From an uncultured Thermoplasmatales archaeon (GTDB lineage: Archaea; Thermoplasmatota; E2; UBA202; DSCA01): a DNA stretch of 64,000 bases. Of this stretch, positions 3,293 to 38,518 are shown in pieces. Below the pieces are notes generated by a model. It made no database searches, had not been told where the DNA came from, and was given only the letters and a program-made list of their open reading frames with translations. The position numbers were made by a program, and so were the translations under genes. The DNA is taken from positions 3,736 to 67,735 of the forward strand of contig CAZESS010000001.1 in NCBI GenBank assembly GCA_964514975.1, given 5' to 3'. The first letter of the stretch is position 1; each line of letters opens with the position of its first letter.

Positions 3293-3325
3293 CCATTTAT
3301 ATGTTTCATCCGTTCGCATCATAAG

Positions 3326-3748
3326 ATGTGGGACGTCACGGCGCTTACAGTCGACCAGGTCGTCAAGATAGCCGTAGCCCTCGGGCTGGGCACGGTCATC
3401 GGCTTCGAGCGCGAATGGGCCGACAAGCCCGCCGGCATCCGTACCCACATCCTGGTCTGCGTGGCCGCCTGCATCATCACCATCATGGCCAGCTATTTCG
3501 AGGCAGAGGAGGCCCAGGCACGGCTCATGGAGGGCATCATCGTCGGCGTCGGATTTTTGGGCGCCGGCTCGATCATTTCCTCCGGTAATTCTGGCGTGCG
3601 AGGTCTCACCACCGCTGCCAGTATATGGATAACATGTGCCATCGGCATGACCGTCGGCAGCGGCAAATACGCCCTGGCAGCGCTGGCCGCCGTCGCCGTG
3701 TTCATCGTGCTACGCATGGGAAAGGCCAAGGAGCGCATCGGGGACTAA
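3326..3748 (+). CDS. MgtC/SapB family membrane protein
   Basis: IGFERE, AGIRTHILV, GVGFLGAG and GLTTAASIW motifs. Confidence 0.92.
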   Translation: MWDVTALTVDQVVKIAVALGLGTVIGFEREWADKPAGIRTHILVCVAACIITIMASYFEAEEAQARLMEGIIVGVGFLGAGSIISSGNSGVRGLTTAASIWITCAIGMTVGSGKYALAALAAVAVFIVLRMGKAKERIGD

Positions 3749-3924
3749 ACCCTGAAATTTTTTGGTATACCTCCGGAAAACGATGCCAGGGCAAGGGGCG
3801 AGCGCGTATCGACGGCACATCTGGCAGGATAGGTTTAAAAAAAGCGTCTAGGATAAGCAATAGGAGGCATGTGATACAGAAAAAAAGAACCAACCCGATA
3901 TCGGAGCTCACCAGGACATGGGGC

Positions 3925-4020
3925 ATGGGAGACCTTTACTGGGTGTTTGTTGTGGTCCTGGCCATGCTTGCCGTATTCGTTCTGTTCTTTCTATTAGTCA
4001 TATGGATCGCGTTGTCCTGA
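3925..4020 (+). CDS. Possible 31-aa single-TM small protein
   Basis: MGDLYWVFVVVLAMLAVFVLFFLLVIWIALS is one strongly hydrophobic helix. Confidence 0.4.
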   Translation: MGDLYWVFVVVLAMLAVFVLFFLLVIWIALS

Positions 4021-4071
4021 CACTATCAACATCATATTCCCCAAACAAACTCTCGTTCCCGCAAATTACCG

Positions 4072-4103
4072 GTAAAAGAGCGCTGAGGGAGGGATTTTAA
4101 CCC
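4072..4103. repeat. Distal att site: copy of tRNA-Ser 3' end plus 9 flanking bp
   Basis: gtaaaagagcgctgagggagggattttaaccc matches 24963-24994 at 31/32. Confidence 0.93.
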
Positions 4104-4144
4104 ATCTTTACTGGCATACTTTAAATATATCTGATAGGATGAGG

Positions 4145-10100: not shown

Positions 10101-10543
10101 TCGTTTTCTAGAATAACATTAAATTTCGCCTGTTCGCCGACAAGCTCAATATGTTGCTCGATATGTATATCTTCTGGCAAATCCCATTCAGTAATTATCT
10201 CGTCATCATTAGAGGGATTTATGTAGCTATCCCGAGACCTATAATAGTCTAGATTATCATTATTTTCATTATCATATACATTTCCATCAACCTTCACCGT
10301 CAGCATCGATGTGTCACCAGGATAAAAGATGCATTCGCCAGAGGCTGTCTCACCTGTAAAGCCTCCATCAGCATAGACATTTATAGACAGATGCTCATTT
10401 GATATTACTGGATCACCATCTTCAAGTGACGCCGCTCCCACATCTATCATCTGTTCATCACTGTTTATTTCTCCCAAAACCAAGGATCCAACCACCACAC
10501 TCGCTATTAAGAGAGTAATTATTAGTAGTTTCTTTCCTTTCAT
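4145..10543 (-). CDS. 2132-aa cell-surface protein: transglutaminase-like core, Ig/CARDB-like repeats, two InlB B-repeat-like domains, lectin-like domain, PGF-CTERM-like anchor
   Basis: Signal peptide; Cys-His-Asp in GVCADYA...GHAVTEVYYDGDWHHCDPT; GGTYDEGTVVTVTANANSGYEFDHWSGD occurs twice; C-terminus VPSFEFTLLLAAASVAFMLLRKRK. Confidence 0.85.
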   Translation of the reverse strand: MKGKKLLIITLLIASVVVGSLVLGEINSDEQMIDVGAASLEDGDPVISNEHLSINVYADGGFTGETASGECIFYPGDTSMLTVKVDGNVYDNENNDNLDYYRSRDSYINPSNDDEIITEWDLPEDIHIEQHIELVGEQAKFNVILENEDSVGRDVSVRFLWDTQIADNDGSPLKEEGGTLRYFEAAFSPVTFNYWSAYARPDPGSLVEYASWDDTPDRIVFAHWPEAVDTSYDYSWSSSRRFYTPGYTSTPESDSCVLMYWEDMSLHPGETETVTSYYGTTTGGGVNVDISTDKQVYSPGERVTISADVTDASGDCLYPLQDEDFIVTFDGSEADIVGFNRISCTDYRLEITAPDTGGDYNIMVRTDTSVGWGSDSSTIEVLDFTIDGVTLSIEGNRLTQYENSADTPIYHRNSDSNKPVFNAEVLFSDGTATYSYVEDNIEVYLNITDHNQMERKDIEATPIARGSGNSILYSCSWKPTDQYPVGKYNATVEVKNQQGELLASSEQKQFYLIFNPPIFKLPFVAHQISAEIHHAAPAPAIIPGANFFGVKFNNLHQWEYRNWKNTLETLTGNSRWDLYPAIYSPSQAIERLTTFSHGIDIGGSVDDSHYGYWHMDDNETKEVSDNTHLLGDYIYGSFWCNRDYESNDGGPEQNAWWYDVNKFKDSNFNPDRKNLPYPRPTGVCADYAPLLISHARSAGIPAREIGGFFAGDSGHAVTEVYYDGDWHHCDPTWDETNTPWTYSDQGYFWASYKTSSISPWGVVSPGIKIDVIDRKNQYNYRAKAISFTFDKSDYDYSDTVNVDITIKNIGDIKINEDYLHLNVYDKPTLSRFRTRHIKDIKIRQTLQPGDTKTYSCTYQLPDYGSQNERYERMGDRYVVAEIDYYDSLYSPYHSIATVTKVGKRVPGLCDEYNSQISVINTTIRLDTANLTSLHYNNDTNISTESYVEPHNTSVSLEHEIKYYTNYTRENWVITNPDNETHHYNLTIPLLGIGDAVYVPGYGTITENQSLDTTAEYLVFYNITNGTASPVDIYTFTRNISLENICFLDGVAKIQAVQNCTLAPSHTMSYLSYLSTRNGTGVSFPEIYSNFSQDILSHGDTLTHLSSPDMDEIFHYRAGQTANINLTLSNAGEERETKSLHMTIAEPGVWNSNHIIYNYTESVDVPADGETTATFQYTIPNKAQLGTYLVTISDGTHKIHSTFIVESAFNVTFDVPNTVTQGEGLYITVNLTNELQESLSDVTATLDLPNDFETSDNLTVQVGELTSGEQVSLGWQATATDFEYGYAPISIALTSAENISTICSTFTQVLRTPQLSLAPSAPSWVYPSQPFEFKINVSNTGDMWLHDVIINLSLPNNVSASEDATRVIGNLSGGETKTMTWTVTASTSEDFGIIINASDATVSHTIETVEIINVTVPQLDVDLTVPDEVKLGSNFSAVLQITNIGEGNASSITATLNSSAHFASSETEKTIDTLAVGETVAMPWNITALSPGSGTLDFTASCQETGPTTLTKGIIITHFPLAIETHNESYLPGNQATFTVSTQNSNPDVSFVDLTVQVTIQGPSTNTTFSKPILYIDSLASRDFVFTWDTIGKDAGLYTVTAAIKENDTLLNQTETSFEIEDINPPTISNISTSPEQQETGGHVNISCDITDNIAVNNVWVNITYPDGSSDNESMVNIRGTDRYYHNTSYQNSGSYHYKVGVSDTSGNTNISSSKTYSILLANYTLDASVDPAEGGTISLVPSGGTYDEGTVVTVTANANSGYEFDHWSGDISGTSTSVDVTMNSDKSVTAHFNVTADNISFEEKFDDGHIDTSTWKKYGSPQPVIVSSIDGRSGIFDNNGDSWCGSGVISQQSYSLVPPITIEADMYLDLQDESGCWAGASIYLASDNNPLGESSNCPDTDFPWFLSMGIGYCGGGCLQTPEQYRGHAYLNFAYETEQNILDEGPSEGDGNIQRDDLIDGWHNYKIKIDQDYKVSYYVDNELIYKSDDAIDSELLTECYIMLGSRSSGSAGKAYHDYIKLYSSSDIVEQYAMTTSVIPSGTGTVTLSPPGGTYDEGTVVTVTANANSGYEFDHWSGDASGTNSNIQITISSNTNVTAYFSKKDSSVPSFEFTLLLAAASVAFMLLRKRKSPI
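4313..5319. repeat. 86-bp identical direct repeat (4313-4398 and 5234-5319) encoding the two B-repeat domains
   Basis: gtcgccgctccaatggtcaaactc...gccaccag is identical at both sites. Confidence 0.88.
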
Positions 10544-19759: not shown

Positions 19760-20156
19760 TGTTAGCCTCCAAACTATATAACCAAACAGGACATTTAAAC
19801 CCTTCTATGCAGGGCTTTAACCGCAGTTGTCACGGACCAGGAAAAGGCTTGCCCCTTAATTACTGCCCCCCCCTGTCTGACAAATTGCAGCATCATTGAA
19901 AGCAAGCAAATTGGTTTGTCCAAACCTTTTCTATAGGCCAGTTGATCAGTGGTTTTCATGAAAGTTCGCTATACATATCTGTTACTTTTGTGTATAGAAC
20001 AAGAGGGGGGTCTTCATATATCCCATATCAGCAAGTACCTGGCATGGCGGGAGGGGATCAAAGAATGTTAGTATAGCTTTAGTATTTAAGGAATATTTCT
20101 CAATTTTGGGATATTATTATAAAGTATTTTTTGTTATTGTGGGTGAGGTATGTAGG

Positions 20157-22100
20157 ATGTGGGGGAAGAGGTATACGATTTTAGCGGTTGTCACAGTTGT
20201 TATAGCATTGTTTAATGCTTCGATTGGAGGTATAACGGAGCATCGGGCAGCTCTTCCAGGTATGGGGCAACTGGATGCTTATGATGAATCGAGGGCATGT
20301 TCTGATAATCTTGAATCGTTTCAAGTTGACGTGAACTTTTCTAATCCGATAATACTGGAATATGGTAGATATATCAGAATATCATGTCATAGTGATGAAG
20401 ATATTTTGCTATGCCCTGGAATGCCAATGCTTCCTGTTGTAAATATCGTCGTAACAATTCCCCTGGGCAGTAAAATTATCGATGTGAATTATGTAGGTAG
20501 TTCATATGAAAAGATGGATTTACCAGGGAAGATAATGCCTGCTCCTATGCCATTTAAGATAAATGGAAAAGGGGTATCATCTGTTTGTAGCCAACAGTGT
20601 ATCCCTAAACTCGATGAATCTACGTATGGGAGTTCATCGTATTTTCCGTCGGAGTGGTATTCGTTTCATAGAGGTGGGGGATTGCTTGATGGAAAACGTG
20701 TATCTTTTCTTTCTATACATGTGTACCCGGTGAGATATGCACCCAGGCTTGATAGCATTCAATATACCCGGGGGGTGACTGTTGAAGTATTGTATGAAAA
20801 ACCAGAAACACAGTCTTTCATGGCTGGGGATGGGTATGATATGCTTGTTATATCTCCAAGCGAGTTTATCGGGGCTCTTAGACCGCTTGAGGATTATAAG
20901 AATAGTATCGGGGTTTCTACTAAACTGGTTGCTCTTGAGGAGATTACTTGTAGGGGCCGTGATACTCAGGAGCAGATAAAATACTGCATTAAGCAGGCGA
21001 TTGAGGACTGGGGGGTTACATACGTGCTGCTGGTAGGGAATCGGACTAAAGTGCCTGCTCGGGTGGTGGATTCGGGAGATATTCCTATTTATCCCCAGTT
21101 TGTTACTGATTTATATTATGGTGATGTGTTTGATTGTGATGGCAGATTTTGCTCATGGGATGCCAATAATAATAGCGTATTTGGTGAATTGAACGATACT
21201 GCGATTGTGGATGGAATGGACTTATATCCCGATGTGTATGTCGGGCGGCTTCTCTGCCGGAACCGTTCAGAGGTTGAATTGGTTGTGAATAAAACTATTA
21301 GTTACGAAGAAAATACATGGGGGAAACCATGGTTTAAGAACTTGGTTGTCTGTGGTGGCGATTCGCATTCGATGTGGAAGGATATTGTGTTTAACCTGTT
21401 TTTGGGCGGTGGTATAGCTCGTGAAGGAGAATACATTGGTGACCGGGTTGCTGAAAATATGAGCGAGAGTGGGTTTAACGTGACGAAATTGTATGCAAGT
21501 GCATTGTTTCCCTTTGGTGATGCAGATGCAGAGCGGCTTACTGTGGAGAATATTAATACGGCGATAAATAAGGGTGCTGGGTTCGTGGTATTCAGTGGCC
21601 ATGGGAATCCTCTGATGTGGGGTACACACCCTCCATCATTGGATGGCATATGGTTGCCGTTTCATCGTGGGTATTCAACGCCTGATGATCTAGCGTCGTT
21701 GCATAATTCTGGTAAGCTCCCTATCGTTGTTTTTGATGCATGCTCCTGCGGCGACTATAGCAATATCACCGGGGTGCCAAGTCCCCTTGCCTGGGATTTT
21801 GTGAATAAACCCGATAGTGGTGCTGTCGCCTCATATGCGTGTACGTCTCTTGCATTTGGGTATCCTGGTGAGCTTACCACTCAGACCTGTAATGGTTTTG
21901 TTTCTTCCCATCTGTTTTCAACGTATGCTGCGGGAGTTATGTATACGGGGGAATTACTCGCTGATACTCTTACGGCATACCTTAATAGTCAGGTTGCTAT
22001 GTCAAAATATGTGCCTGCGAGTATGAGTGTTTTATGTGTGGAGTATTGGACTCTTTTTGGAGATCCATCGTTACATATCGGGGGCTTTCCTCATAGGTAG
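20157..22100 (+). CDS. C25 family (gingipain-like) cysteine peptidase with propeptide
   Basis: PGMPMLP propeptide, YVLLVG, TDLYY, VGRL, catalytic SGHG and DACS, and LFGDP. Confidence 0.9.
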   Translation: MWGKRYTILAVVTVVIALFNASIGGITEHRAALPGMGQLDAYDESRACSDNLESFQVDVNFSNPIILEYGRYIRISCHSDEDILLCPGMPMLPVVNIVVTIPLGSKIIDVNYVGSSYEKMDLPGKIMPAPMPFKINGKGVSSVCSQQCIPKLDESTYGSSSYFPSEWYSFHRGGGLLDGKRVSFLSIHVYPVRYAPRLDSIQYTRGVTVEVLYEKPETQSFMAGDGYDMLVISPSEFIGALRPLEDYKNSIGVSTKLVALEEITCRGRDTQEQIKYCIKQAIEDWGVTYVLLVGNRTKVPARVVDSGDIPIYPQFVTDLYYGDVFDCDGRFCSWDANNNSVFGELNDTAIVDGMDLYPDVYVGRLLCRNRSEVELVVNKTISYEENTWGKPWFKNLVVCGGDSHSMWKDIVFNLFLGGGIAREGEYIGDRVAENMSESGFNVTKLYASALFPFGDADAERLTVENINTAINKGAGFVVFSGHGNPLMWGTHPPSLDGIWLPFHRGYSTPDDLASLHNSGKLPIVVFDACSCGDYSNITGVPSPLAWDFVNKPDSGAVASYACTSLAFGYPGELTTQTCNGFVSSHLFSTYAAGVMYTGELLADTLTAYLNSQVAMSKYVPASMSVLCVEYWTLFGDPSLHIGGFPHR

Positions 22101-23304: not shown

Positions 23305-24255
23305 TTATTCCAGCCCGAGCTGCGGGATGCAGGCCAGATATTGTTTCCGCAGGTCCTCATGGTCGATATGGTTGTAGATGTCGATGGCGCCCTTGGGCGA
23401 GTCACCGCGAAGCTCCGCCACATACTCCCGGGGCATCCCCGCGCGGAACAAATGCGTGGTGAACCAGTGACGGCAGCAGTGCGGTGTGAAGTGGTCTTCC
23501 ATCTGGTCGGAGTCGGGGTCATGCAGGTCAACCTCGGCGGCCCAATACGTAAATGCATTGTAGATCCCGCTTCGTTTGAGCCGTCTGCCCTGTGTGTAGC
23601 CGACGAAGAGGGCCTGCTCGTTGGGTGCGGCGATGTCGTCGCGGCGTTGCAGCCATCGGTGGAGCACTCTGGCCGTCTCTGCATCGAAGTAGACGAGGCG
23701 GTTGGTCCGCTTCTGCGTCGGTTTCAGCATGATGCTCATGGTGTCCCAGTCGATGTCGCCGAGGTCGATGAGACTGATTTCTTTGCGTCCCCTTCCTGTT
23801 TTGGCGAGCAGGGTGCAGAGGGCCTTGTCTCGCGTGTCCATGATGGAATTCAGGAAGATCCGCATTTCTTCCACGCTGACAAGCTTCCGTTCGCTCCGTG
23901 AGCCCTGTTTTTTGTATCGGTGGAGGTAGCGGTTGCGGACGTCACCGATGGGGCTGCCCTGGATATGGCCTTCGTAGGAGAGGAAGTCGTAGAAGCTGCT
24001 CAGGGCACTGAAATGGTTTTCGATGGTTTTCTGTTTCCGGCCCTTGTTGCGGAGATGTTCGATGTATTGTCTGAGGTGGCGGCCGTTGACCTCGGTGAAC
24101 GTGATGTCGTGCTGGTGGATGAACTGTTTGAAGAGGCGGATGGGTGAGAGGTAGCTCTGGATGGTCCCCGTGGTGAGCCCGCGGATCTTGCTGTCATCTT
24201 CGAAGTCCTCGATGAGGTCATCGTCCGATGTCTGCACCGTTATGGTTTCTCCCAT
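23305..24255 (-). CDS. Tyrosine recombinase/integrase
   Basis: SAM-like N-domain (TIQSYL, ALSSFYDFL), LAKTGRGRKE, HCCRHWFTT and LRGD...IYNH motifs. Confidence 0.92.
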   Translation of the reverse strand: MGETITVQTSDDDLIEDFEDDSKIRGLTTGTIQSYLSPIRLFKQFIHQHDITFTEVNGRHLRQYIEHLRNKGRKQKTIENHFSALSSFYDFLSYEGHIQGSPIGDVRNRYLHRYKKQGSRSERKLVSVEEMRIFLNSIMDTRDKALCTLLAKTGRGRKEISLIDLGDIDWDTMSIMLKPTQKRTNRLVYFDAETARVLHRWLQRRDDIAAPNEQALFVGYTQGRRLKRSGIYNAFTYWAAEVDLHDPDSDQMEDHFTPHCCRHWFTTHLFRAGMPREYVAELRGDSPKGAIDIYNHIDHEDLRKQYLACIPQLGLE

Positions 24256-24923: not shown

Positions 24924-24971
24924 CACATCATACAACAGCCAAATTATATATAAAGTTTACTCGTAAAAGAG

Positions 24972-25059
24972 CGCTGAGGGAGGGATTTGAACCCTCGTGG
25001 GGCGAAAGCCCCACCAGCTCTCAAGGCTGGCGCCGTAGTCCTGGCTTGGCTACCTCAGC
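24972..25059 (-). tRNA. tRNA-Ser (anticodon UGA)
   Basis: Acceptor stem GCTGAGG/CCTCAGC plus G discriminator, anticodon arm CCAGC-CTTGAGA-GCTGG, long variable arm, GGTTCAAATCC T-loop; CCA not encoded. Confidence 0.95.
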
Positions 25060-27002: not shown

Positions 27003-27932
27003 ATGACGGATGTAAAGCGGTTTTTTCTCGCGCATGCCTGGAGCATCCTCCTGGGCTACATCGGGGTGGTGACCGCCAGCTTGGCCATCGCGCACGCGGT
27101 GCTGACCGGCACGCTCGGCCTCATTTCCGTTATCGGCCTGCTGCCGCTTCCCGCCCTCTTCCTGGCGGGCTATCTGTACAGCAAAACCATCCGGCTCGAG
27201 CGGGATGCCCGGGAACAGCGGGAGGAGCTGGAGGCGGTGCGCCGGGAGCTTGAGGACTACACCTATGTGGTGTCCCACGAGCTGAAGGAACCCCTTCGCT
27301 CGCTCCGCATCTTTTCCGGTTTTTTGCTCGAGGACTACGGCGACCGGCTGGACGAGCAGGGACGGGACTACGTGCAGCGCCTCCATCGCGCCTCGGTGAG
27401 ACTAAGCAGCCTCGTCGACGACCTGCTGCTGCTGTCGCGTATCGGGCGGGCGGAGCATGCGGTTGAGCGCGTGGACATGAACGAGCTGGTCGCTGAGACC
27501 GGGGATGAGCTCGCCGCCCTGGTCGAGGAGTCGGATGCGACGGTACGGGCGCAGCCGCTTCCCGTGGTGGCCTGCCAGCGCCGGCTGATGGGCGAGATAT
27601 TCAAAAACGTCATCGCCAACGGCATCCGCTTCAACGAGGAGGAGCATCCCGTGGTCGAGGTGTCCTGTGCCGAGCGGAACGGCGCCTTTTGTTTCAGTAT
27701 CAAGGATAACGGTATCGGCATCGAGCCGGATAAGCTCGAGGACGTGTTTGACCTGTTCACCCAGCTGCATCCCCGGGAGCGATATGGCGGGGACGGCGCC
27801 GGTCTGGCCATCTGCAAGAAAATCGTCGAGGCGCACGGCGGACGGATATGGGCCGAGAGCACCCCTGGGGAGGGAACCGTGGTGTGGTTTACCATCCCGA
27901 AGCATATGGAGGCGCCGGGGGAGGTGCTGTGA
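27003..27932 (+). CDS. Membrane sensor histidine kinase (2 TM, HisKA, HATPase_c)
   Basis: VSHELKEPL H-box; N, G1 (DNGIGI), F and G2 (GAGLAI) boxes. Confidence 0.93.
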   Translation: MTDVKRFFLAHAWSILLGYIGVVTASLAIAHAVLTGTLGLISVIGLLPLPALFLAGYLYSKTIRLERDAREQREELEAVRRELEDYTYVVSHELKEPLRSLRIFSGFLLEDYGDRLDEQGRDYVQRLHRASVRLSSLVDDLLLLSRIGRAEHAVERVDMNELVAETGDELAALVEESDATVRAQPLPVVACQRRLMGEIFKNVIANGIRFNEEEHPVVEVSCAERNGAFCFSIKDNGIGIEPDKLEDVFDLFTQLHPRERYGGDGAGLAICKKIVEAHGGRIWAESTPGEGTVVWFTIPKHMEAPGEVL

Positions 27933-28639
27933 TGGAGCAGAGCGACGTGGATGCCGGTGGAAACGAGCGCACTGCGCAGGTACTCTGCATCGAGGATAAC
28001 GAGGATGATTTCGAGGCGGTGAGGCTGTCGCTTGAGCGTCATCTTGATATGCCGGTCGCCGTGGTGCATGCGCCGACGGGCCGGGAGGGCCTGCATGCGA
28101 TGCGCAGAAGGCAGGTCGACGTGGTGGTGCTTGATTATCTGCTTCCTGACATGGACGGGCTCGAGGTCATGGAGATAATGCGGCGGGAGGGCATCGACAT
28201 GCCGGTGATCATGCTGACGGGGAAGGGGGATGAGAACGTTGCGGTGAAGGCGATGAAGCGGGGTATCCATGATTATATCGTGAAGGAGGACCTGGAGACG
28301 GAGAAGCTGAGTGACAGCGTTGGCAGGGTGCTCGAGCTGACCATGTTTCTCCGGGGGCATGATGCGGTGTTGACCGAGTTTCATATACCGGGGAAGCGGC
28401 GGGGCACGCTGGTTATCCTGGCGAACATTTTGACGGCTTCGATACACGGTATCAATAAGACGACGCTGGTGCACCGCACCAACCTTAATTTTAAGACGGT
28501 TAAGAAGTATCTTTTGTTTTTGCTCGACAATGATTTTTTGTCGGTGCATCATGTTGAGGGGAAGGACATGTATAAGACGACGGAGAAGGGGCTGTTGCTG
28601 CTGCAGAAGCTCCGTGAGGTCAAGCAATATCTCGAATAG
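27932..28639 (+). CDS. Response regulator: receiver plus C-terminal archaeal winged HTH
   Basis: IEDN, LDYLLP, LTG and IVK receiver residues; KTTLVHRTNLNFKTVKKYL...YKTTEKG wHTH. Confidence 0.9.
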   Translation: MEQSDVDAGGNERTAQVLCIEDNEDDFEAVRLSLERHLDMPVAVVHAPTGREGLHAMRRRQVDVVVLDYLLPDMDGLEVMEIMRREGIDMPVIMLTGKGDENVAVKAMKRGIHDYIVKEDLETEKLSDSVGRVLELTMFLRGHDAVLTEFHIPGKRRGTLVILANILTASIHGINKTTLVHRTNLNFKTVKKYLLFLLDNDFLSVHHVEGKDMYKTTEKGLLLLQKLREVKQYLE

Positions 28640-29592: not shown

Positions 29593-30261
29593 ATGAGAAA
29601 AAAAATCGCTGTCATCGCCGTCCTGGCAACAGTCGCCATCTCACTGGGCAGCATGCATCCGCATCTCCTGCACGCGGAGCAGCACGCGGCCAGCGAAATA
29701 CCCGGCGGATACACCGTCATATCAGGCGGCAACGTCACCGCCACCTATAACTTCAGCGTCAACGCCGGTGTGGACAGATGGGCATACCGATATCAGACAT
29801 CCGACCAGCCGCCCGGCACGAACGACACCCCCGGCATGGCGTTCAACGCATCCCAGTACGCCCGCATCGAAGCCGACGAAGACACCCGGCAGATAGACCG
29901 GGCGACAGCATGGTTCTCCCATGCTGCCCACCGGTTCGTTTTCACGATAGCCCAGAACAAAAGCACCGTCACCCTGCTCCATGTCAGCTGGAACGGCGGC
30001 GGGGTACACACCGGCTCAACCGACGGCGCCATCCTCTACCTGTGGAACCACACCGCCGGCGCATACGACCAGCTGGGCAGCACCACGCTGGACACCGAGA
30101 TAACCCTCGAAGGGACAACCTCTGCTGGCGCCAACTACATCGACACCGCCGGAAACCTGACCGCCCTCGTCGTGCAGCAGCGGCGGACATTCCTGTTCTG
30201 GTACTCATACATCGCCACCGACTACATCGAGATAGATGTCACCCACACGGGAGGTGCATGA
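29593..30261 (+). CDS. Secreted beta-rich protein (accessory subunit candidate)
   Basis: MRKKIAVIAVLATVAISLG signal; LYLWNH...YDQL...YID...DYIEIDV jelly-roll-like pattern. Confidence 0.65.
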   Translation: MRKKIAVIAVLATVAISLGSMHPHLLHAEQHAASEIPGGYTVISGGNVTATYNFSVNAGVDRWAYRYQTSDQPPGTNDTPGMAFNASQYARIEADEDTRQIDRATAWFSHAAHRFVFTIAQNKSTVTLLHVSWNGGGVHTGSTDGAILYLWNHTAGAYDQLGSTTLDTEITLEGTTSAGANYIDTAGNLTALVVQQRRTFLFWYSYIATDYIEIDVTHTGGA

Positions 30262-30262
30262 A

Positions 30263-32008
30263 ATGGAGACGAGCGCAAAAAAGATCATCGGAAACGTGCT
30301 CTTCATCGCCGTCCTGCTGCTCATCATCGGCCGGTTTCTCAGCATCGCCGCCGGCACCCCGTTCCCCCTCAGCGTCGTCTCCTCCGACTCCATGGAACCC
30401 GCCCTGTTCAAAGGCGACGTGATGCCCTGGATGCCCTGCAGCATCGACACCGTCGAACCGGGAGACGTCGTGGTCTACGCCAGCGCCCAGAGCTGGGATA
30501 ACGAAAAACACGTCGTGCATCGTGTCACCTCGGTTCGCGAGACCAATGGAGAACGGACGCTCATCACCCGTGGCGACCAGAACAACTACACCGATCAGGC
30601 CGGCCCGCACGTGCCGGAGCCGCCGATAACCGGCGGGATGCTCAAGGGCAGAGCCATCATGCTCGGTGGGCAGCCGCTAAAAATCCCGCTGGCGGGCTAC
30701 CCGTGGCTCATGCTCCACTCCGGCATAGACGCGCTCACCCGGTCCATGTCCTGGGGGCAGCCACAGCCCGGCCACCACTATGGCGTGTTCGTGCCCGCCG
30801 TCATCGCGATATCGCTCGTCGTCGCAGGTGCCGTGCTCTGGGCTCCCGGGCGTGGACGCAACATGCGGGAAACACTGCATGACTGCATCCTGGGGCCGGA
30901 GCGGCTGTCCGGACGGCGCATGTTTGCCTACATCTTCCTGTTCTATGTCGTGTTCCTCATGATAGCGGCCTCGTTTTCGTATGACCGTCTCTCCGCATCG
31001 ATGGCGGTCGACGAGGCAGCGCCGGACAGCGACCTGTCGTTCGGCACCCTGCAGGCAACGTCGTCATCGTTCCCCCGGTCCGTTTCGGTGGTCAACCCGT
31101 CGATGCTGCCCGTGCGAGGGATGGTGTTCGCCTCCGGCGACATCGCCCGTTTCCTTGAGCCGGGGGATGCAGCAACGTTTTCCTTGGACAGCGGGGAGCG
31201 GTTCTCGGGCAACATCACCGCCAGCATTCCCGCCGGAACCCCGCCGGGCGTCTACACCGGTTCCCTCATCATTTATTCGTCTCCCTACTGGTCAATTGTT
31301 CCCGCCTCGGCTGTCGACGGCCTGCGGACATGGCATCACCGGGGCGCCATCGTTGCGCTCACCCTGCTCGCAGCGGGCACGCTCGCCGTGTCCACGTTTC
31401 TCCTGCTCGCCGTGCTGTCATGGATGATGGAGAAAAGCCGCCTCGTCCGCGGCTACCTTGCATGGCGGCTGCTGCCTGTGGAGGCACGGATGCCATCCTC
31501 GCGCCTGTACACCGGGGCAGCCTTGATAGCACAGCGGCTTCGCCGTTCCCTCCGCCGGACGCTATCCTGGCTGGATACCACGACCGGCGACGACGATGCT
31601 CCGATGCGGCCCATCGCCGTATCGCTCGTCGGCCTGCTGGCGGGCGCTCCTCTGCTATACTGGCGGCATAGCATCCTGGCGGCGCTGCTCGTGGCATCCA
31701 TTGTCGGCGGGATAGCGGCCTACCTGGTGGGCTGCCGCTGGCGCTCCCAGTTTCTGTATGCGGCGCTGCTGACCACCGGATGGCTCGCCGGCATGTATGC
31801 GGCTGTTTCGATGCTGCACGTGGTCCGGGCTGGCGGCTCGCTGTTCGTCCCGCTCGCCTCGTCGATCACCACAGCCGGGGTCATGCTGCTCCTGTATGCC
31901 GCCCTGGCGGTGCCGTCCGCGCTTCTCTTCTGGCTGCCGGGCCATGTCATGCATTCGATTCGTGAAAAATGGAACCCCGTGGTATTGCTTCGGGGGTGTG
32001 ACCTATGA
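30263..32008 (+). CDS. S26 signal peptidase (SipW/Sec11 type) with long C-terminal Ig-like and multi-TM extension
   Basis: VVSSDSMEPALFKGD (catalytic Ser), VVHRV (His) and TRGDQNNYTD; about 400 further residues, mostly membrane segments. Confidence 0.88.
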   Translation: METSAKKIIGNVLFIAVLLLIIGRFLSIAAGTPFPLSVVSSDSMEPALFKGDVMPWMPCSIDTVEPGDVVVYASAQSWDNEKHVVHRVTSVRETNGERTLITRGDQNNYTDQAGPHVPEPPITGGMLKGRAIMLGGQPLKIPLAGYPWLMLHSGIDALTRSMSWGQPQPGHHYGVFVPAVIAISLVVAGAVLWAPGRGRNMRETLHDCILGPERLSGRRMFAYIFLFYVVFLMIAASFSYDRLSASMAVDEAAPDSDLSFGTLQATSSSFPRSVSVVNPSMLPVRGMVFASGDIARFLEPGDAATFSLDSGERFSGNITASIPAGTPPGVYTGSLIIYSSPYWSIVPASAVDGLRTWHHRGAIVALTLLAAGTLAVSTFLLLAVLSWMMEKSRLVRGYLAWRLLPVEARMPSSRLYTGAALIAQRLRRSLRRTLSWLDTTTGDDDAPMRPIAVSLVGLLAGAPLLYWRHSILAALLVASIVGGIAAYLVGCRWRSQFLYAALLTTGWLAGMYAAVSMLHVVRAGGSLFVPLASSITTAGVMLLLYAALAVPSALLFWLPGHVMHSIREKWNPVVLLRGCDL

Positions 32009-33222
32009 AAAAACAACTACAGCATCTATATGAAAAAATAAAGAAGACCATCTGGCCGTTCTGGGGCACCGCCGTCGAGGGCACCCCGGTCTACTACGAG
32101 GACACCGGCGACCGGATGGGCACCGTCGTCGAGGTCGTCAGAAATGCCGGAGGTGCGCCGTCAGGCTACCGGGTCCGCCATGGGGAAACCGGGACGGTGA
32201 CCATGCTTCCCGCCGACGCGTTGCAGTCCACCAAGCGGGGACTGCTGTTCACGCCCGTCTGGCACGTGGAGGCCGTATCGCTTGTCAGAGAACTCGAATA
32301 CGCGGCGCGGCATCCACGGCTCCATGACCTCGTCGACGGCGCCTCGCTGACAGACGACGAGCCGCAGGACATGGCGACATCCGACCCGGAGCTGCGGCGG
32401 AAAATCGACCATGCACGGCAGGTCAGGCGGTCGCTCGCACGTCAGCTCGAGGAACTCGAGCGGAAACGCCAGGATGTCAGGGAGCAGCTCATGGCGCTCT
32501 CGGAGCAGCGCCTGCTGCGGGACATCAGCCGCCGGGCGTTCGCCGAGGCGGTCACCGAGGCACGGCGCCGCGCCCGCATCCTGGACATCAACATTGAGCG
32601 CTGCAACGACCTGCTCGTCCGCTTCAGCGATCTCCCGTTTCTGCCCGCGGAGGCGCCACGGCAGGATGACGCTGAGCCGGAGGGGGTCATGCCGCTCAGG
32701 GAGCTCATGCACAGCATTCCCATAAACGTGGCCGTGATGGACCGGTCGGGCGTCATCCGGAGCGTCAACGAGCAGTTCACCGAAAACCTGCACTACGAGC
32801 CCGGGGAGGTAACGGGACGGCCGCTGTCCGCGCTCATGGTCGGCGACGGGCAGCATGTTGCCGAGATGTGCGATGACGGCGGCGCCAGCGACATGGAGTT
32901 CACCATCCGGGACGGCCGGGGGAAAGAGCGCTGCATGTACGGGCGGGCGATGCTGGTCTCCGACAACGGCCACGGCGAGGTCATGGCGCTTGCCTTCCAG
33001 GAGAAAATGGAGGAAAGCGACACGTTCCGGAAGATGCTTACCGACCAGATATCCCACGAGTTTTTCAACCCGCTCTGCATCGCCCAGGGTTACCTCTACC
33101 TGCTCGACGAGGGCAAATACGGCGACCTGACGCCGGAGCAGCAGCGGCAGGTCCGCTCGATCGCCAAAAACCTTAAACGGATAGAGCAGCTTGTCAAGGA
33201 GACGGTGCAAGTGAAACCGTGA
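32005..33222 (+). CDS. PRC-barrel-like, coiled coil, PAS and HisKA protein lacking HATPase
   Basis: GTPVYYEDTGDRMGTVVEV; IPINVAVMDRSG...VN PAS; ISHEFFNPLCIAQGYL; ends about 55 aa after the His. Confidence 0.8.
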   Translation: MKKQLQHLYEKIKKTIWPFWGTAVEGTPVYYEDTGDRMGTVVEVVRNAGGAPSGYRVRHGETGTVTMLPADALQSTKRGLLFTPVWHVEAVSLVRELEYAARHPRLHDLVDGASLTDDEPQDMATSDPELRRKIDHARQVRRSLARQLEELERKRQDVREQLMALSEQRLLRDISRRAFAEAVTEARRRARILDINIERCNDLLVRFSDLPFLPAEAPRQDDAEPEGVMPLRELMHSIPINVAVMDRSGVIRSVNEQFTENLHYEPGEVTGRPLSALMVGDGQHVAEMCDDGGASDMEFTIRDGRGKERCMYGRAMLVSDNGHGEVMALAFQEKMEESDTFRKMLTDQISHEFFNPLCIAQGYLYLLDEGKYGDLTPEQQRQVRSIAKNLKRIEQLVKETVQVKP

Positions 33223-33611
33223 CCACCATCCTCCTTGTGGACGACGAGCCCGACATCCACCACATCCTCGAGATAGCGCTTGAGCGGCGCAGCAGCCAGC
33301 TCCAGATGGAGCACGCCTACGACGGTGCGGCAGCCATCGAGATGTACCGGCAGCTGCAGCATGACACCCCGGATGGATGTCTCGTCCTCATGGATATAAA
33401 GATGCCGGGCATGGACGGCATCGAGGCAACCAGACGCCTCGTCGACATCGATCCGGATGCGTTTATCTACATCTTCACCGCCTACGCACATACCGATTTT
33501 GCTGACGAGGCCGTCAACGCCGGTGCCCGAGGGCTCATCCAGAAGTCGGACGACATCAGGGAGATGCTGGCGTGCATCCACGAGGCGGCCGCCCGGCTGG
33601 ATAACATTTAA
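33219..33611 (+). CDS. Stand-alone response regulator receiver
   Basis: LVDDE, LMDIKMPGMDG, FTA and IQK; GTGA overlap with the upstream gene. Confidence 0.93.
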   Translation: MTTILLVDDEPDIHHILEIALERRSSQLQMEHAYDGAAAIEMYRQLQHDTPDGCLVLMDIKMPGMDGIEATRRLVDIDPDAFIYIFTAYAHTDFADEAVNAGARGLIQKSDDIREMLACIHEAAARLDNI

Positions 33612-33637
33612 ACCTCGTTGTGTATTACGGTATTTGG

Positions 33638-36600
33638 ATGGGTGACATTCAGACCTATTTTTCGGAGATAGAGCGGCATGTTGAGCGATGCTACGGCATT
33701 GCGGAGAAGGCTCGTGCCAGGGGCTACGACCCCACCAGGGAGGTCGAGGTCCCGACGGCCAACGATTTTGCGGAACGCGTCGAGGAGCTTGTCGGGCCGG
33801 AGGGCATCGCCTCAGTTATCCGCAAACGCCTTGCGGATATGAGCCGCGAGCAGACGGCGCTGTCCGTTGCCATCGACATCGCCGAGGAACACGCGGGCAG
33901 CACCGAGCAGACGGTCGATCAGGCGGTGCGGACGGGCCTCGCCATCCTGACGGAGGGCGTCCTGGTGGCGCCTATCGAGGGCATCTCGGCGGTGAAAATC
34001 GGGAGCAACGCCGACGGCGGCAGCTACGTCGACCTCTATTTTGCCGGTCCCATCCGCTCCGCTGGCGGCACGGGCGAGGCCATGAGCGTGCTCATCGCCG
34101 ACGTGGTCCGCCGCAGGCTCGACATCGGCCGCTACCGGCCGACGGATGACGAGGTCGAGCGGTACAAGGAGGAGGTCCCCCTGTATGACCGCATCACGAC
34201 GCTGCAGTATTCCCCCTCGCTTGAGGAAATCGAGACCATCGTCCGCAACTGCCCTGTCTGCATCAACGGTGAGCCGACGGAGCAGAAAGAGGTGACGGGC
34301 AAGCGAAACCTGCCGCGGGTACACACCAACCGGGTCCGGGGCGGCGCCTGCCTGGTCATCGCCGAGGGACTGTGCCTCAAGGCGCCCAAGCTCCTGAAAC
34401 ATGTCGACAGCATGCAGCTCGAGGGATGGGACTTCCTCAATGCGTTCATACAGGACAACGGGGAGGAATCCCGCACCATCGCCCCGTCGGCGAAATACAT
34501 GAAAAGCCTCATCGCCGGCCGCCCCGTGTTTTCGCATCCCTCCAGCAAGGGTGGATTCCGCCTGCGTTACGGCCGCGGCCGGACCTGCGGACTGGCGTCA
34601 ACCGCCATCCATCCGGCGGCGATGCACATCCTCGACGACTTCGTTGCCCTGGGAACGCAGCTCAAAACCGAGCGGCCCGGCAAGGGAACCATCGGGACGA
34701 GCTGCACGTCCATCGAGGGGCCCATGGTCCTGCTCGACAGCGGCGACTTCGTTCAGCTTTACACGTCGGCGGAGGCACAGGAGGTAAAGGAGCACATCCA
34801 GGAAATCATCGACCTCGGCGAAATTTTGGTTCCCTTCGGCGAGTTCGTCGAAAACAACGCCATCCTGCCGCAGGCAAGCTACTGCCATGAATGGTGGATA
34901 CAGGAACTGGAGGAAGCCATCCAGGTCACCGACGAGGACATGGCGGCGGAGCATGTAGCCGAGCGACTTGGCCGGACGATGTCGCTTCATGAGCCATCGC
35001 CGGAGGAAGCGTTTTTCATCGCGGAGACGTTCGACGTGCCGCTCCATCCACGGCACACGCTCTTCTGGCATGACCTTTCCACTGACGACATAGCTGCGCT
35101 CGCCTATGCGCTCCAGCAGGCATCCTACAACGATGGCCGCCTCGAGATACCGAATGATGGAGAGGTCAAGGAGCTGCTCATGCAGCTGGGCGCCCTGCAC
35201 GTGGAAAACGAGACACATGACAGGCTCATATTGGACCGGTGTGCGCTTCCGCTGCTGCGCTGCTGCGGCTATAGGGTGGAGGACGGCCGGGTCAGGCAGC
35301 ATACATCGCCGGGGTCGGTCGACGCCACGGATGTGCTGGAGCTCGTATCGGCGCTCGCCGGCGTTTCCGTCAGGGCGAGAGCTCCCTCGCGCATCGGCAC
35401 CCGGATGGGCCGGCCGGAAAAAGCGGCGAAGCGAACCATGCGAGCGACGCCCCATGTGCTGTTTCCCGTCGGGCGGGCCGGCGGGCGAGAGCGACTGGTC
35501 AATGCTGCAGCGCGGGCGAACAAGATATCGTTCGAGGCGGGATCCCGGCAGTGCCAGCGCTGCGGCAACGTCACCTACAAGACCCGCTGCCAGTGCGGCG
35601 GCACCACCGTTTCCACGGGACGAATCGAGCGGCGGGAGGTCAAGCTGTACATGGAGGTCGACGAGGCCAAGGAGCGCATCGGCATGGTGCACATGCCCGA
35701 CAAGGTCAAGGGCGTCATCGGGCTGTCATCCCGGAGCAAGACCCCGGAGAGCCTGGAGAAGGGATTGCTCAGGGCGAAGCATGACATCTACGTGTTCAAG
35801 GATGGCACCGCTCGTTTCGACATGACCAACATGCCGCTCACTCACTTTAAACCGGAGGAGATCGGGACATCGGTGGAGCGACTCCGCGAGCTCGGCTACA
35901 CTCATGACTGGCGAGGGGACCCCCTCGAACGGCCTGACCAGGTCTGCGAGCTCAGGGTGCAGGATGTCATCCCGTCATGCTCGTGCGGCCGGTATCTCGC
36001 TCGGGTCGCCCGGTTCATCGACGAGCTCCTCGAACACTATTACGACATGGAGCCCTTCTACAACGTTGACGATCCCGCGGACCTTATCGGCAGCATGGTG
36101 GTCGGCATGTCTCCGCACACCTCCGCCGGGGCGGTCGGCCGCATCATCGGGTTCATCGACGCCGCCGTGTGCTGCGCCCACCCGTTCTATCATGCGGCCA
36201 AGCGCCGGAACTGCGACGGCGACGAGGACACCCTGATGCTCCTGATGGACGTGCTGGTCAATTTTTCGCTGGAATACATCCCTGAGAAGCGGGGCGGCCA
36301 CATGGACCTGCCCCTGGTGCTCGCCACCCGGATATCGCCCGCGGAGATCGACAAGGAGGCGGAAAACCTGGACGTGCTTTCCCGCTACCCGCTCCCGTTT
36401 TTCCAGGCGACGACACGTCACGCGCACCCAAAAGAGGTGGAGGAGGAGATGGATCTCGTTGCCGGTCGCATCGGCACCGGTCGGGAATACGACGGCTTCG
36501 GGTTCACCCATGACACCGGGGACATCGCCGACGGCGTCACCGTCTCGGCATACAAGACGCTGGGCAAGATGGAGGAAAAATTGTATGCGCAGCTCGCCCT

Positions 36601-36964
36601 GGCTCGAATCATCCGCGCCGTCGACGAAAGCGACGTTGCAGCCAGGGTGATACAGACACATTTCCTGCCCGACCTCATCGGCAACCTCAGGGCGTTCACC
36701 AAGCAGCAGGTCCGCTGCGTCAAATGCAACACCAAATACCGGCGCATCCCGCTCAAGGGGCGGTGCACCAACTGCGGCAAATCGCTGACGCTGACCGTCC
36801 ACGAAAAGTCAATCAAAAAATACCTGGAGCCCGCCAAGCGCATCATAGAGGACTTCGAGGTGCCCACCTACACCAGGCAGCGCCTTCTTTTGTTCGAAAA
36901 ATCCGCCGAGTCATTGTTCACCAACGACAAGGTCACGCAGACGAAGCTGCCGGGCTTCGGATAA
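33638..36964 (+). CDS. polC: DNA polymerase D large subunit (DP2)
   Basis: YFAGPIRSAGGT, GGFRLRYGR, HAAKRRNCDGDED, and C-terminal CVKC...CTNC. Confidence 0.97.
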   Translation: MGDIQTYFSEIERHVERCYGIAEKARARGYDPTREVEVPTANDFAERVEELVGPEGIASVIRKRLADMSREQTALSVAIDIAEEHAGSTEQTVDQAVRTGLAILTEGVLVAPIEGISAVKIGSNADGGSYVDLYFAGPIRSAGGTGEAMSVLIADVVRRRLDIGRYRPTDDEVERYKEEVPLYDRITTLQYSPSLEEIETIVRNCPVCINGEPTEQKEVTGKRNLPRVHTNRVRGGACLVIAEGLCLKAPKLLKHVDSMQLEGWDFLNAFIQDNGEESRTIAPSAKYMKSLIAGRPVFSHPSSKGGFRLRYGRGRTCGLASTAIHPAAMHILDDFVALGTQLKTERPGKGTIGTSCTSIEGPMVLLDSGDFVQLYTSAEAQEVKEHIQEIIDLGEILVPFGEFVENNAILPQASYCHEWWIQELEEAIQVTDEDMAAEHVAERLGRTMSLHEPSPEEAFFIAETFDVPLHPRHTLFWHDLSTDDIAALAYALQQASYNDGRLEIPNDGEVKELLMQLGALHVENETHDRLILDRCALPLLRCCGYRVEDGRVRQHTSPGSVDATDVLELVSALAGVSVRARAPSRIGTRMGRPEKAAKRTMRATPHVLFPVGRAGGRERLVNAAARANKISFEAGSRQCQRCGNVTYKTRCQCGGTTVSTGRIERREVKLYMEVDEAKERIGMVHMPDKVKGVIGLSSRSKTPESLEKGLLRAKHDIYVFKDGTARFDMTNMPLTHFKPEEIGTSVERLRELGYTHDWRGDPLERPDQVCELRVQDVIPSCSCGRYLARVARFIDELLEHYYDMEPFYNVDDPADLIGSMVVGMSPHTSAGAVGRIIGFIDAAVCCAHPFYHAAKRRNCDGDEDTLMLLMDVLVNFSLEYIPEKRGGHMDLPLVLATRISPAEIDKEAENLDVLSRYPLPFFQATTRHAHPKEVEEEMDLVAGRIGTGREYDGFGFTHDTGDIADGVTVSAYKTLGKMEEKLYAQLALARIIRAVDESDVAARVIQTHFLPDLIGNLRAFTKQQVRCVKCNTKYRRIPLKGRCTNCGKSLTLTVHEKSIKKYLEPAKRIIEDFEVPTYTRQRLLLFEKSAESLFTNDKVTQTKLPGFG

Positions 36965-37093
36965 AAAAAGAAATACATAAATATTTCCAGTCGTTGGTAT
37001 ATGCGCCGTGCTGTACCGACACGTCCGGCATGGAGGAGTCCCGTGTTACAACGTTTCCGCAGCCTGTTTTTTCACGAGCCGGGAGCACCGGGC

Positions 37094-37930
37094 ATGCGGT
37101 TTTCAACGGTGCAGGAATGGCGCGAAAACGTTTTCTACGCTATTTTCGTCGTCACGCTCATCCTCGGCACGGTCGCGCTCCTCGTCAGCGCATTCTACGC
37201 CGTGCGACATGGTGACTGGCTCAACCTGGCCGTTTTCTGCGGGGTATATGCCCTCGCTCTCATTTTTACGTTCACCGCCCGGGTGCCCTTCCGCGCCCGG
37301 GTGACCGGCTGGCTGGTTATTTTTTATCTGCTGGGCCTGGTGACGTTTCTGTCGCTCGGGCCGGTGGGCAGCTTTCGCATCTGGTGGTTTTCGCTGGCCG
37401 TCATCGCCGGCCTCCTGCTCGGGCTTTATGAGGGCATCGTCGCGGTGGTCGTCAACGCGGCGTCGCTGACCGTGCTTGGATACCTCGCCGCCGTCGGCCA
37501 TGTAAGCTGGTCATCCGCCGCGTTCGCACCAGAGACATGGGCGATTACCGGGGTAACCTTCGTTTTTTTGAACGCGGTGGCCGTGGTGTCTGTCGCGCTG
37601 CTCATCCGGGGTATCGAGCATCTTTTCGTCACCGCCACCCGTCACGCCGAGGCGCTCCGTGCGTCGCACCGCCGGCTGGAGACCGAGGTAATGGAGCGTA
37701 AAAGAGCCGAGGAGGAAATGGAGCGCGCCCTGGAGCTCGAAAAACGGTTCAAGGCCGATGCGGCGCATTTCTTTTTGAACCCTATCGCCATCGCCAAGGG
37801 CTACATGGACCTCGCCATGGAGCGGATGAGCCAGCCGGGGCGACGGCGCCTTGCCGCGGCGCGTGCCGCCATCCGGCGCGTGGAATCCGTCATCAAGAAC
37901 ATCGTTGAAAAGGGAGAGATACGCGAATAG
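37094..37930 (+). CDS. Six-TM sensor plus HisKA protein lacking HATPase
   Basis: Multiple TMs, ERKRAEEE linker, AAHFFLNPIAIAKGY; stop after VEKGEIRE. Confidence 0.8.
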   Translation: MRFSTVQEWRENVFYAIFVVTLILGTVALLVSAFYAVRHGDWLNLAVFCGVYALALIFTFTARVPFRARVTGWLVIFYLLGLVTFLSLGPVGSFRIWWFSLAVIAGLLLGLYEGIVAVVVNAASLTVLGYLAAVGHVSWSSAAFAPETWAITGVTFVFLNAVAVVSVALLIRGIEHLFVTATRHAEALRASHRRLETEVMERKRAEEEMERALELEKRFKADAAHFFLNPIAIAKGYMDLAMERMSQPGRRRLAAARAAIRRVESVIKNIVEKGEIRE

Positions 37931-37933
37931 CCG

Positions 37934-38518
37934 CTATTCTTTGAGCTCGCCGTCGTAGATGACGTTTTTGACCACGGTTTCGATCCGGGCGAGCGCCTGT
38001 CTGGCCGCCTCGAGCATCGCCTCGTCGTCGCCGTTGCTTTCCCGGTTGAGCACGAGCTGGAGGTAGCCCTGGGCGATGCAGAGCGGGTTGAAGAAATGAT
38101 GGGAGATGCATTCCTTGAACAGCCGCTCCCGGCAGAGCTGGCTTTGCAGGTTGCGTTCCATCTGTTTGACCATGTCGAGGTTTCTGACGACGCCGACGTA
38201 CTGCGGGTGTCTGCCATTGCTGGCTACCCGATGGAACCGTATCTCCACCGTCGTCGCGTTGCCGTTGTTCCGGAGGGAGCGGTAGAGCAGCCGGCCGCCG
38301 TCCCGGAGCGTGTTCATTACGTTGTCGCCGTCCTCGGATGTGGGCTGGAGCAGCTCCTGCAGCGGTATATCCCGCGTTTTTTCCGGGTGTCTGCCTAGCA
38401 GCGAGGCGGCGGTGTCGCTGAGATGGATGCAGCGTCCGTCTGTGTCGAGCAGCATGATGCCCTCCTCGGTGCTGATGCCGGTGCGGGATGCCTCTCGGGT
38501 GACGGTACACAGCTCCAT
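37934..38518 (-). CDS. PAS plus HisKA protein lacking HATPase
   Basis: EGIMLLDTDG...AASLLG PAS, VGVVRN, ISHHFFNPLCIAQGYL; stop after YDGELKE. Confidence 0.8.
   Translation of the reverse strand: MELCTVTREASRTGISTEEGIMLLDTDGRCIHLSDTAASLLGRHPEKTRDIPLQELLQPTSEDGDNVMNTLRDGGRLLYRSLRNNGNATTVEIRFHRVASNGRHPQYVGVVRNLDMVKQMERNLQSQLCRERLFKECISHHFFNPLCIAQGYLQLVLNRESNGDDEAMLEAARQALARIETVVKNVIYDGELKE

Follow-up and report, generated by a model that had tools for sequence, protein, structure and literature searches.

Sensor proteins that end at the DHp hairpin form an order-specific, ATPase-less family in uncultured Thermoplasmatota

A stretch of 64,000 nucleotides (nt) from an uncultured Thermoplasmatales archaeon (GenBank assembly GCA_964514975.1, contig CAZESS010000001.1, positions 3,736–67,735 of the forward strand), hereafter called the window, carries three genes, A, B and C, whose products join a sensor to a C-terminal dimerization and histidine phosphotransfer (DHp) hairpin of the HisKA type and stop there, without the catalytic and ATP-binding (CA) domain, HATPase, of a histidine kinase. 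These genes belong to a multi-copy family that is specific to one order of the Thermoplasmatota, and the architecture without a CA domain is kept throughout the family. The ATPase-less end is selected and is not the outcome of random truncation. Judging from its residues, the family kept its His and the determinant of phosphatase activity and largely lost the determinant of kinase activity, as expected for proteins without an ATPase. With modest confidence, we favor the reading that its members act as signal-gated phosphatases of receivers and oppose the complete kinases, possibly with back-transfer of the phosphoryl group to the His.

Three sensor genes that stop after the DHp hairpin

The three open reading frames (ORFs), their H-boxes and their C-termini were found exactly as given in a preliminary description, which had been made from the letters of the window alone. 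The features concerned, with positions in the window, are the following.

27003–27932, plus strand: complete small membrane histidine kinase, the comparator, with HisKA (50.5 bits, H-box H-E-L-K-E-P) and HATPase_c (93.5 bits)
32005–33222, plus strand: gene A, a cytoplasmic sensor of 405 amino acids (aa), weakly PRC-like at its N-terminus, followed by a coiled coil, a PAS domain and the C-terminal DHp, ending in VQVKP
32980–33219, plus strand: DHp hairpin of A, with the His codon at 33055–33057 and the codon for the invariant Asn four residues after it (H+4) at 33067–33069
33064–33089, plus strand: stretch encoding FNPLCIAQG of the H-box of A, 26 nt identical to 38067–38092 on the minus strand
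33219–33611, plus strand: stand-alone receiver of 130 aa, Response_reg at 80 bits, with an intact DD/D/T/K set
37001–37930, plus strand: gene B, a MASE11 membrane sensor with a C-terminal DHp, ending in EKGEIRE; the start is 37001 or 37094
37934–38518, minus strand: gene C, PAS plus a C-terminal DHp, 194 aa, ending in YDGELKE

All three products terminate 0–1 residue past the hairpin, and no Pfam match to HATPase was found in A, B or C, in agreement with what had been described. The Pfam HisKA model (PF00512, gathering cut-off 26.9 bits) matched the extreme C-terminus in each case, at residues 344–399 of 405 in A (33.8 bits), 248–302 of 309 in B (17.2 bits) and 151–200 of 207 in C (21.9 bits), only the match of A lying above the cut-off. 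NCBIfam has no dedicated family for any of the three. The kinase at 27003, cited earlier as the full counterpart, does have both domains, and the gene of its REC-wHTH regulator (27929–28639) begins within its end.

The sensor regions are less uniform. The PAS domain of A scored 29.4 bits, and the PRC-like domain assigned to the same protein fell below its threshold (16.2 bits against a cut-off of 21.2, E 0.011). The region of B that had been read as a sensor with six membrane helices proved to be a clear MASE11 domain (105.3 bits). The frame of C runs on to 38557, giving 207 aa if the TTG at that position is the start; 38518 is the likely start, because the closest homologue, P0052, aligns its residues 1–194 to residues 14–207 of the longer frame. 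At the H-box, A alone of the three carries H-E, while B reads AAHFFLNP (His codon 37766–37768) and C reads ISHHFFNP (His codon 38099–38101). B and C are convergent and their stop codons are 3 nt apart, so a downstream ATPase exon is impossible.

The 26-nt identity between A and C, emphasized in the preliminary description, is real, since its 2 matches were reached in 0 of 100 shuffles. As special evidence it was rejected, because identical H-box runs of 26–35 nt occur in 9 paralog pairs of this genome. Such runs reflect paralogy and possibly gene conversion as well, as about 0.002 per pair would be expected from independent choice of codons.

Immediately upstream of A lies a gene for a 590-aa multi-pass membrane protein (30236–32008, plus strand), whose stop overlaps the start of A by 4 nt and which also directly precedes the orthologues of A in 8 loci. 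It has no Pfam match at E ≤ 1e-4; by eye, it contains a candidate signal-peptidase-like SMEP motif.

An order-wide family with an unvarying end

As had been proposed, a hidden Markov model (HMM) was built from the three C-termini and searched against the genome, here all six-frame ORFs (1.96 Mb, 66 contigs); the phylum was searched as well. In the genome, the model retrieved 12 ORFs whose end coincides exactly with that of the domain and one in which a receiver (REC) follows directly, a DHp-REC fusion. The supposed family of three therefore has 13 members here. With a profile made from the 13 sequences, these paralogs scored 86.7–120.7 bits (86.7 for A and 120.2 for B), and the next ORF, a canonical kinase, scored 19.7 bits. 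Their sensors vary widely, including one to six PAS domains, GAF, N-terminal REC, MASE11 and other membrane regions. Judged by the Pfam HisKA cut-off with hmmscan, two of the 13 pass (A with 33.8 bits and the member in locus L004 with 27.3 bits), six are sub-threshold and five have no match at E ≤ 0.01; in the six-frame search, three of the 13 pass. Because of these weak or absent scores, the proteins appear in public records as "PAS domain S-box protein", "hypothetical protein" or "signal transduction histidine kinase".

A profile search of 1.84 billion cluster representatives returned 674 proteins at E ≤ 1e-3, 130 of them at E ≤ 1e-10, and the best 150 were re-scored. Among those 150, 126 scored at least 60 bits; 120 of the 126 end no more than 3 residues from the domain, five have tails of 4–13 residues and one (P0045) runs into a receiver. 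HATPase was present in none of the 126. Proteins that do bear HATPase matched the profile only at 27.5–49.5 bits and have ordinary H-boxes (SHELRTPL, SHDLRNPL). A contig scan with one genome per species gave 137 relatives, of which the best 80 loci were kept, 77 from records of Thermoplasmatota, Thermoplasmata or Thermoplasmatales metagenome-assembled genomes and three from a record titled "archaeon". All 83 domain matches in these loci end 0–1 residue before a stop codon, and HATPase in the same frame was found for none of the 83. Orthologs thus do not continue into HATPase, and the family is sharply bounded.

In a sample of 301 genomes of the Thermoplasmatota, the domain was present in all nine other sampled genomes of the family to which the window belongs (f1) and in all 11 of a second family of the same order (f2), with 2–11 copies each. 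In the other families of the phylum in this sample it was not found, save for two 42-bit matches in one family (f31), in frames of 838 and 919 aa. The in-register stops, the search of representatives and this order-wide distribution are the reasons for regarding the ATPase-less end as selected, as the preliminary description had argued from three genes. HATPase matches occurred in all 39 genomes of the order that were searched (2–16 each), so the phyletic pattern does not separate the models of mechanism discussed below.

It could still be asked whether these genes are truncations, pseudogenes or assembly artefacts of ordinary kinases. The only support for this is the missing HATPase in three neighboring genes. 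Against it stand the stops in register in 83 of 83 matches and 120 of 126 representatives, which rule it out, together with the conserved extreme C-terminus G-E-I-x-E, the convergent arrangement of B and C and the receiver starts that overlap sensor stops. We give this explanation a negligible probability.

Fold and residue pattern of the domain

In the AlphaFold2 model of C (predicted local distance difference test, pLDDT, 86.3), a PAS domain (residues 19–113) is followed by a helix (115–158) with His140, a turn and a second helix (164–189); the last five residues are non-helical. The top fold matches in the PDB, over about 200 columns, were the PAS/LOV histidine kinases YF1 (4gcz), SB2F1, WalK and VicK. 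The family profile matched the DHp domains of ThkA (3a0r, E 2e-6) and KinB (3d36), with the His of the family aligned to their H-box His, and the His of A is by this alignment the equivalent of the phospho-acceptor. Because of the modeled hairpin and these fold and profile matches, the domain is a genuine HisKA-derived DHp.

Residues were counted in 82 unique family sequences with an average identity of about 50% in the domain. Invariant in all 82 are the His, whose conservation had been taken as decisive for the earlier proposal, the Asn at H+4, Pro at H+5, Ile at H+8, Gly at H+11 and one Arg on helix 2, and the H-box can be written [SA]-H-[YHFE]-F-F-N-P-[LI]-x-I-A-K-G-Y. The residue directly after the His (H+1) is Tyr in 47 sequences, His in 17, Glu in nine, Phe in seven and another residue in two. 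It is acidic, therefore, in only 9 of 82, and all nine Glu belong to the subfamily of A. In contrast, the 14 complete kinases of this genome all have Asp or Glu at H+1, as judged from H-boxes located by eye upstream of the HATPase matches, 12 of them backed by HisKA matches.

This contrast touches on the two activities of HisKA kinases. Willett and Kirby (2012) tested CrdS, two homologues and HK853, and found the acidic H+1 residue to be required for kinase and dispensable for phosphatase activity, and Thr or Asn at H+4 to be required for phosphatase and dispensable for kinase activity. With Asn in 82 of 82, the family has the Thr/Asn-at-H+4 feature of the HisKA phosphatase motif E/D-x-x-T/N, as a feature of the sequence only.

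The extreme C-terminus has its own signature, G-E-I-[RHY]-E, conserved in most members (Gly and Glu in 70 of 82 each) and absent from the subfamily of A; in B these residues are encoded at 37913–37927 and in C at 37937–37951.

Complete kinases of the genome

The search with HATPase_c gave 15 matches in the genome, namely 14 kinase-type frames of 324–2007 aa and one topoisomerase-VI-B-like frame. It had been suggested that the DHp-only sensors might use a free CA subunit in trans. This candidate was rejected: no stand-alone CA protein was found in the genome by this search, all 14 kinase-type frames, with at least 324 aa, carry their own H-box, and in other genomes only 3 of 83 family genes have HATPase within ±4 kb.

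A related alternative is that the CA domain of a complete kinase charges the His of a DHp-only protein, in a heterodimer or in trans, and that the latter then serves as phosphodonor. Complete kinases are indeed available in every genome of the order that was searched, and some members stand directly behind one: in locus L002, the kinase at 1265–4228 overlaps the family member at 4225–5451 by 4 nt, and in L001 a kinase lies 560 nt upstream of the member. A, which keeps H-E, is about 5.4 kb from a small complete kinase in this genome (G000), with similar spacing in genomes G259, G147 and G163. However, the DHp of the family is far from that of the kinases (19.7 bits for the best kinase against 87–121 bits), so mixed dimers would be unusual, and 73 of 82 sequences lack an acidic residue at H+1. 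The scarcity of nearby HATPase genes and the lack of a stand-alone CA protein in the genome also speak against such a mechanism, which we regard as improbable for the family. Among its members it is most plausible for A, because of the retained H-E and the small complete kinase nearby.

Two further observations concern the kinases themselves. Nine of the complete kinases of this genome (e.g., those at L002 1265–4228 and in L091) share the H-box M-R-H-D-I-L-N-x-L-Q-I-A and score 15–29 bits, at or below the Pfam HisKA cut-off; they form a second divergent, lineage-typical DHp type, in which HATPase is kept. In L003, a 339-aa protein with REC and HATPase (8482–9501, minus strand) has no PF00512 match and an H-box reading R-H-D-G-I-N-K. 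It sits between a stand-alone REC gene and a 1347-aa REC-GAF-PAS-DHp-only gene, in a dense signaling cluster that is suggestive of a relay.

Receivers as neighbors

The coupling of A to an intact stand-alone receiver, reported in the preliminary description, was verified: the GTG start of the receiver overlaps the TGA stop of A by 4 nt (GTGA). Orthologous pairs of A and receiver occur in L010–L013, L015 and L017. There are 22 REC matches in the genome, and stand-alone receivers are abundant. A gene of this kind overlaps or directly follows 5 of the 12 terminal-DHp genes, namely A and the members on contigs C26, C19, C21 and C3, and the DHp-REC fusion is represented by one member of this genome (L009) and by P0045. 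In other genomes, a REC domain starts 5–100 nt downstream on the same strand for at least 23 of 83 family genes, a lower bound, as some loci end near the gene. In L006, the stop of the sensor and the ATG of the receiver overlap by 8 nt, and next comes a complete kinase, so that one receiver stands between the two kinds of sensor. The whole cassette (L006 4685–8577) consists of an ATPase-less GAF-PAS sensor (4685–6784), REC (6777–7220) and the complete kinase (7180–8577), and an orthologous cassette is seen in L065.

Clustering of 972 ORFs from the ±2.5 kb around each of the 83 family genes showed receivers as the only recurrent signaling partners. Another conserved partner, such as a non-GHKL kinase, was therefore rejected, the other recurrent clusters being synteny of orthologous loci or shadow ORFs. 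Syntenic neighbors include a coiled-coil protein of about 295 aa (17 loci), the large subunit of DNA polymerase II and the 590-aa membrane protein mentioned above.

A subfamily of receivers has Arg in place of the conserved Lys of strand β5, with 10 stand-alone examples in this genome. In five of the Arg-type receivers, the phospho-acceptor Asp is also followed directly by an insert of some 18 residues (MDLNLSGSN...HR.GED..MDGV). They follow both ATPase-less sensors and complete kinases; examples are the receiver at L006 6777–7220 and those in L001, L003, L007 and L091, as well as in L046, L056, L058, L064, L065, L072–L075 and L077.

Proposed function and its alternatives

A role as signal-gated phosphatases is suggested because the family has no ATP-binding domain, has mostly lost the acidic residue at H+1 and has kept Asn at H+4. 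The C-terminal hairpin would dimerize into a four-helix bundle and dock a receiver in the usual geometry of kinase and regulator, from which it would strip phosphoryl groups that complete kinases or small-molecule donors had placed on the receiver; transient back-transfer to the invariant His may also occur. In each pathway, complete kinases would then be the "on" sensors and family members the "off" sensors. The phosphatase or phosphotransferase activity raised in the preliminary description thus fits the conserved residues, at the level of sequence.

The modeling of the A hairpin with its receiver, another step proposed at the outset, is compatible with such docking. Two copies of the DHp of A plus its REC reached a median of 0.61 over three runs, whereas the best of three controls gave 0.00; at least 88% of contacts were common to the runs, and the partner pLDDT was at least 82. 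The predicted interface places H30/N34 and the part of helix α1 below them against α1 of REC and the loops beside D59, T87 and K108. In a calibration whose chain layout differed from the 2 + 1 layout used here, which was run with its own alignments, 58 of 80 solved complexes reached the mark, and so did 2 of 110 mismatched pairs. A pass in this model indicates likeness to solved kinase-regulator complexes and is not proof that A and its receiver bind.

This limit weighs against the phosphatase reading, and so do several other points. The assignment would carry over to an archaeal family what mutants of bacterial HisKA kinases have shown. In some kinases, phosphatase activity does not strictly depend on the His, and for this reason the residue pattern is also compatible with pure phosphotransfer. 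A, with its H-E, could still be phosphorylated in trans. No adjacent receiver is present for 60 of 83 genes elsewhere and for 6 of the 12 here, B and C included, which bears on the targets of those proteins. Finally, Arg replaces the conserved Lys in most partner receivers of the main subfamily, and the phosphorylation chemistry of these receivers may be atypical.

Pure phosphotransfer would be realized if the family members were sensor-gated phosphotransferases in a His-Asp-His-Asp relay, similar to Spo0B and ChpT, with the invariant His accepting the phosphoryl group of one receiver before it is passed to another. The invariance of the His in 82 of 82 sequences, the abundance of stand-alone receivers and the DHp-REC fusions L009 and P0045 are in agreement with this, and the order of genes in L003 (HK, REC, REC-HK, REC-GAF-PAS-DHp-only, REC) resembles a multistep relay. 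A phosphoacceptor or phosphotransfer role is also among the options named by Galperin et al. (2018). On the other hand, the acidic H+1 is lost in 73 of 82 sequences, whereas the phosphatase-specific Asn is kept in all 82, and most loci have at most one adjacent receiver, not two. Moreover, Spo0B and ChpT keep a degenerate CA-like domain, which is absent from the family. We consider a relay possible and rather unlikely, and the phosphatase reading remains the one that we prefer.

The output might also involve no phosphoryl chemistry, with the hairpin only dimerizing or binding partners, for example sequestering receivers or blocking kinases, without use of the His. The term "nonenzymatic" given to this class by Galperin et al. 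(2018), the many orphan members and the frequent Arg in place of Lys in partner receivers would suit such a role. The invariance of H, N and P over 82 unique sequences of about 50% identity is, however, hard to ascribe to packing alone, and these residues face the active site of the receiver in the docking model. Like charging by complete kinases in trans, this alternative seems to us of low probability.

A more speculative version, to which we also assign little probability, is a "reverse" two-component system. In this ATP-independent branch, insert-bearing receivers with the Lys-to-Arg exchange would charge themselves from small-molecule phosphodonors, and DHp-only sensors would drain or shuttle the phosphate via the invariant His. 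In number, the ATPase-less DHp sensors of this genome nearly equal its complete kinases, 13 against 14.

Sensors with a DHp and no ATPase have appeared in archaeal censuses since 2018, without experiment. The family offers a clean test case, having a sharp boundary, an unvarying architecture and residues that separate the kinase and phosphatase determinants, and its compact pairs and triplets of sensor-DHp, receiver and sometimes complete kinase are amenable to expression and assay. If its members were dedicated receiver phosphatases or phosphotransferases, a whole class of "incomplete kinases" would be explained, and the signaling capacity of archaea would be counted differently, here as 14 kinases and 13 opposing sensors. 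The architecture itself would not surprise a specialist; what the family adds is that the open question becomes directly testable.

Other features of the window

A block of about 20 kb (4000–24300) has a GC content of 0.41–0.48, compared with about 0.60 elsewhere. It ends at a tyrosine integrase gene (23305–24255, minus strand) adjoining a tRNA-Ser gene (24971–25059, minus strand), and it encodes surface proteins, namely a 2132-aa protein with a transglutaminase core and InlB-B repeats (4145–10543, minus strand), PKD-domain proteins and a C25 peptidase (20106–22100, plus strand). The block looks like an integrated element.

Comparison with known systems

Among the closest known systems are the bifunctional HisKA kinases (CrdS, HK853, EnvZ and PhoR, and ThkA 3a0r and KinB 3d36 among the structures). 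The family shares with them a homologous DHp, in which the His on helix 1 is followed by x-x-x-N-P-L...I..G-Y, a predicted PAS-DHp stalk and predicted canonical docking of a receiver. It differs in that no member has a CA/HATPase_c domain, in the exchange of the acidic H+1 for Tyr, His or Phe in most members, in the conserved G-E-I-x-E tail and in the Pfam HisKA scores, which are below the cut-off for 11 of 13 paralogs. Of two features of a classical sensor histidine kinase, HATPase_c after the DHp is lacking throughout and the acidic H+1 is lacking in all but 9 of 82 sequences. Spo0B and ChpT offer the parallel for a relay, being ATP-independent DHp-type four-helix bundles whose His exchanges phosphoryl groups with receivers. 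They have a degenerate CA-like α/β domain and no sensor domain, and they act between two receivers. Members of the family, in contrast, have sensors and nothing past the hairpin, and do not belong with Spo0B and ChpT. Within the motif, the Asn at H+4 is the counterpart of N375 of CrdS, the phosphatase determinant, according to Willett and Kirby (2012).

The novelty of the proposal in the preliminary description was overstated, and one of the refuting conditions named there applies in part. Galperin et al. (2018; PMC5847659) describe archaeal "nonenzymatic HK-like proteins", with sensors and, at the C-terminus, a HisKA-like domain that has a conserved His and no HATPase. According to that paper, they occur mainly in Archaeoglobi and Methanomicrobia, with seven genes each in three named genomes, are misannotated as kinases and include REC-(PAS)n-HisKA forms; phosphoacceptor or phosphotransfer and phosphatase roles are suggested there, so these hypotheses too have a precedent. 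For 11 Thermoplasmata genomes, it gives 3 kinases and 4 regulators. No experimental characterization is reported in that paper. In P2CS, the class "HisKA, no HATPase" bears the name "possible incomplete histidine kinase". No experimental study came up in our literature search, either of a sensor-DHp-only protein or of this Thermoplasmatota family. A recent preprint (Silly, Perriere and Ortet 2026; bioRxiv 10.64898/2026.02.27.708494) states that incomplete histidine kinases without HisKA or without HATPase have been described, and treats divergent H-boxes; the set that it covers comprises only proteins that keep HATPase, and the family is the converse case.

With its N-terminal sensors, its C-terminal HisKA-like domain with a conserved His and its lack of HATPase, the family falls within the class as defined by Galperin et al. 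(2018), a comparison made by description. It differs from that class in its confinement, as far as the searched genomes go, to a single order of uncultured Thermoplasmatota, where each genome has 2–13 copies. The architecture class is thus already known, and the family is a lineage-specific case of a known, uncharacterized kind. New are the lineage, the family's size and sharp limits, the stop that never varies, the contrast at H+1 and H+4 with the kinases of the same genome, and the coupled receivers.

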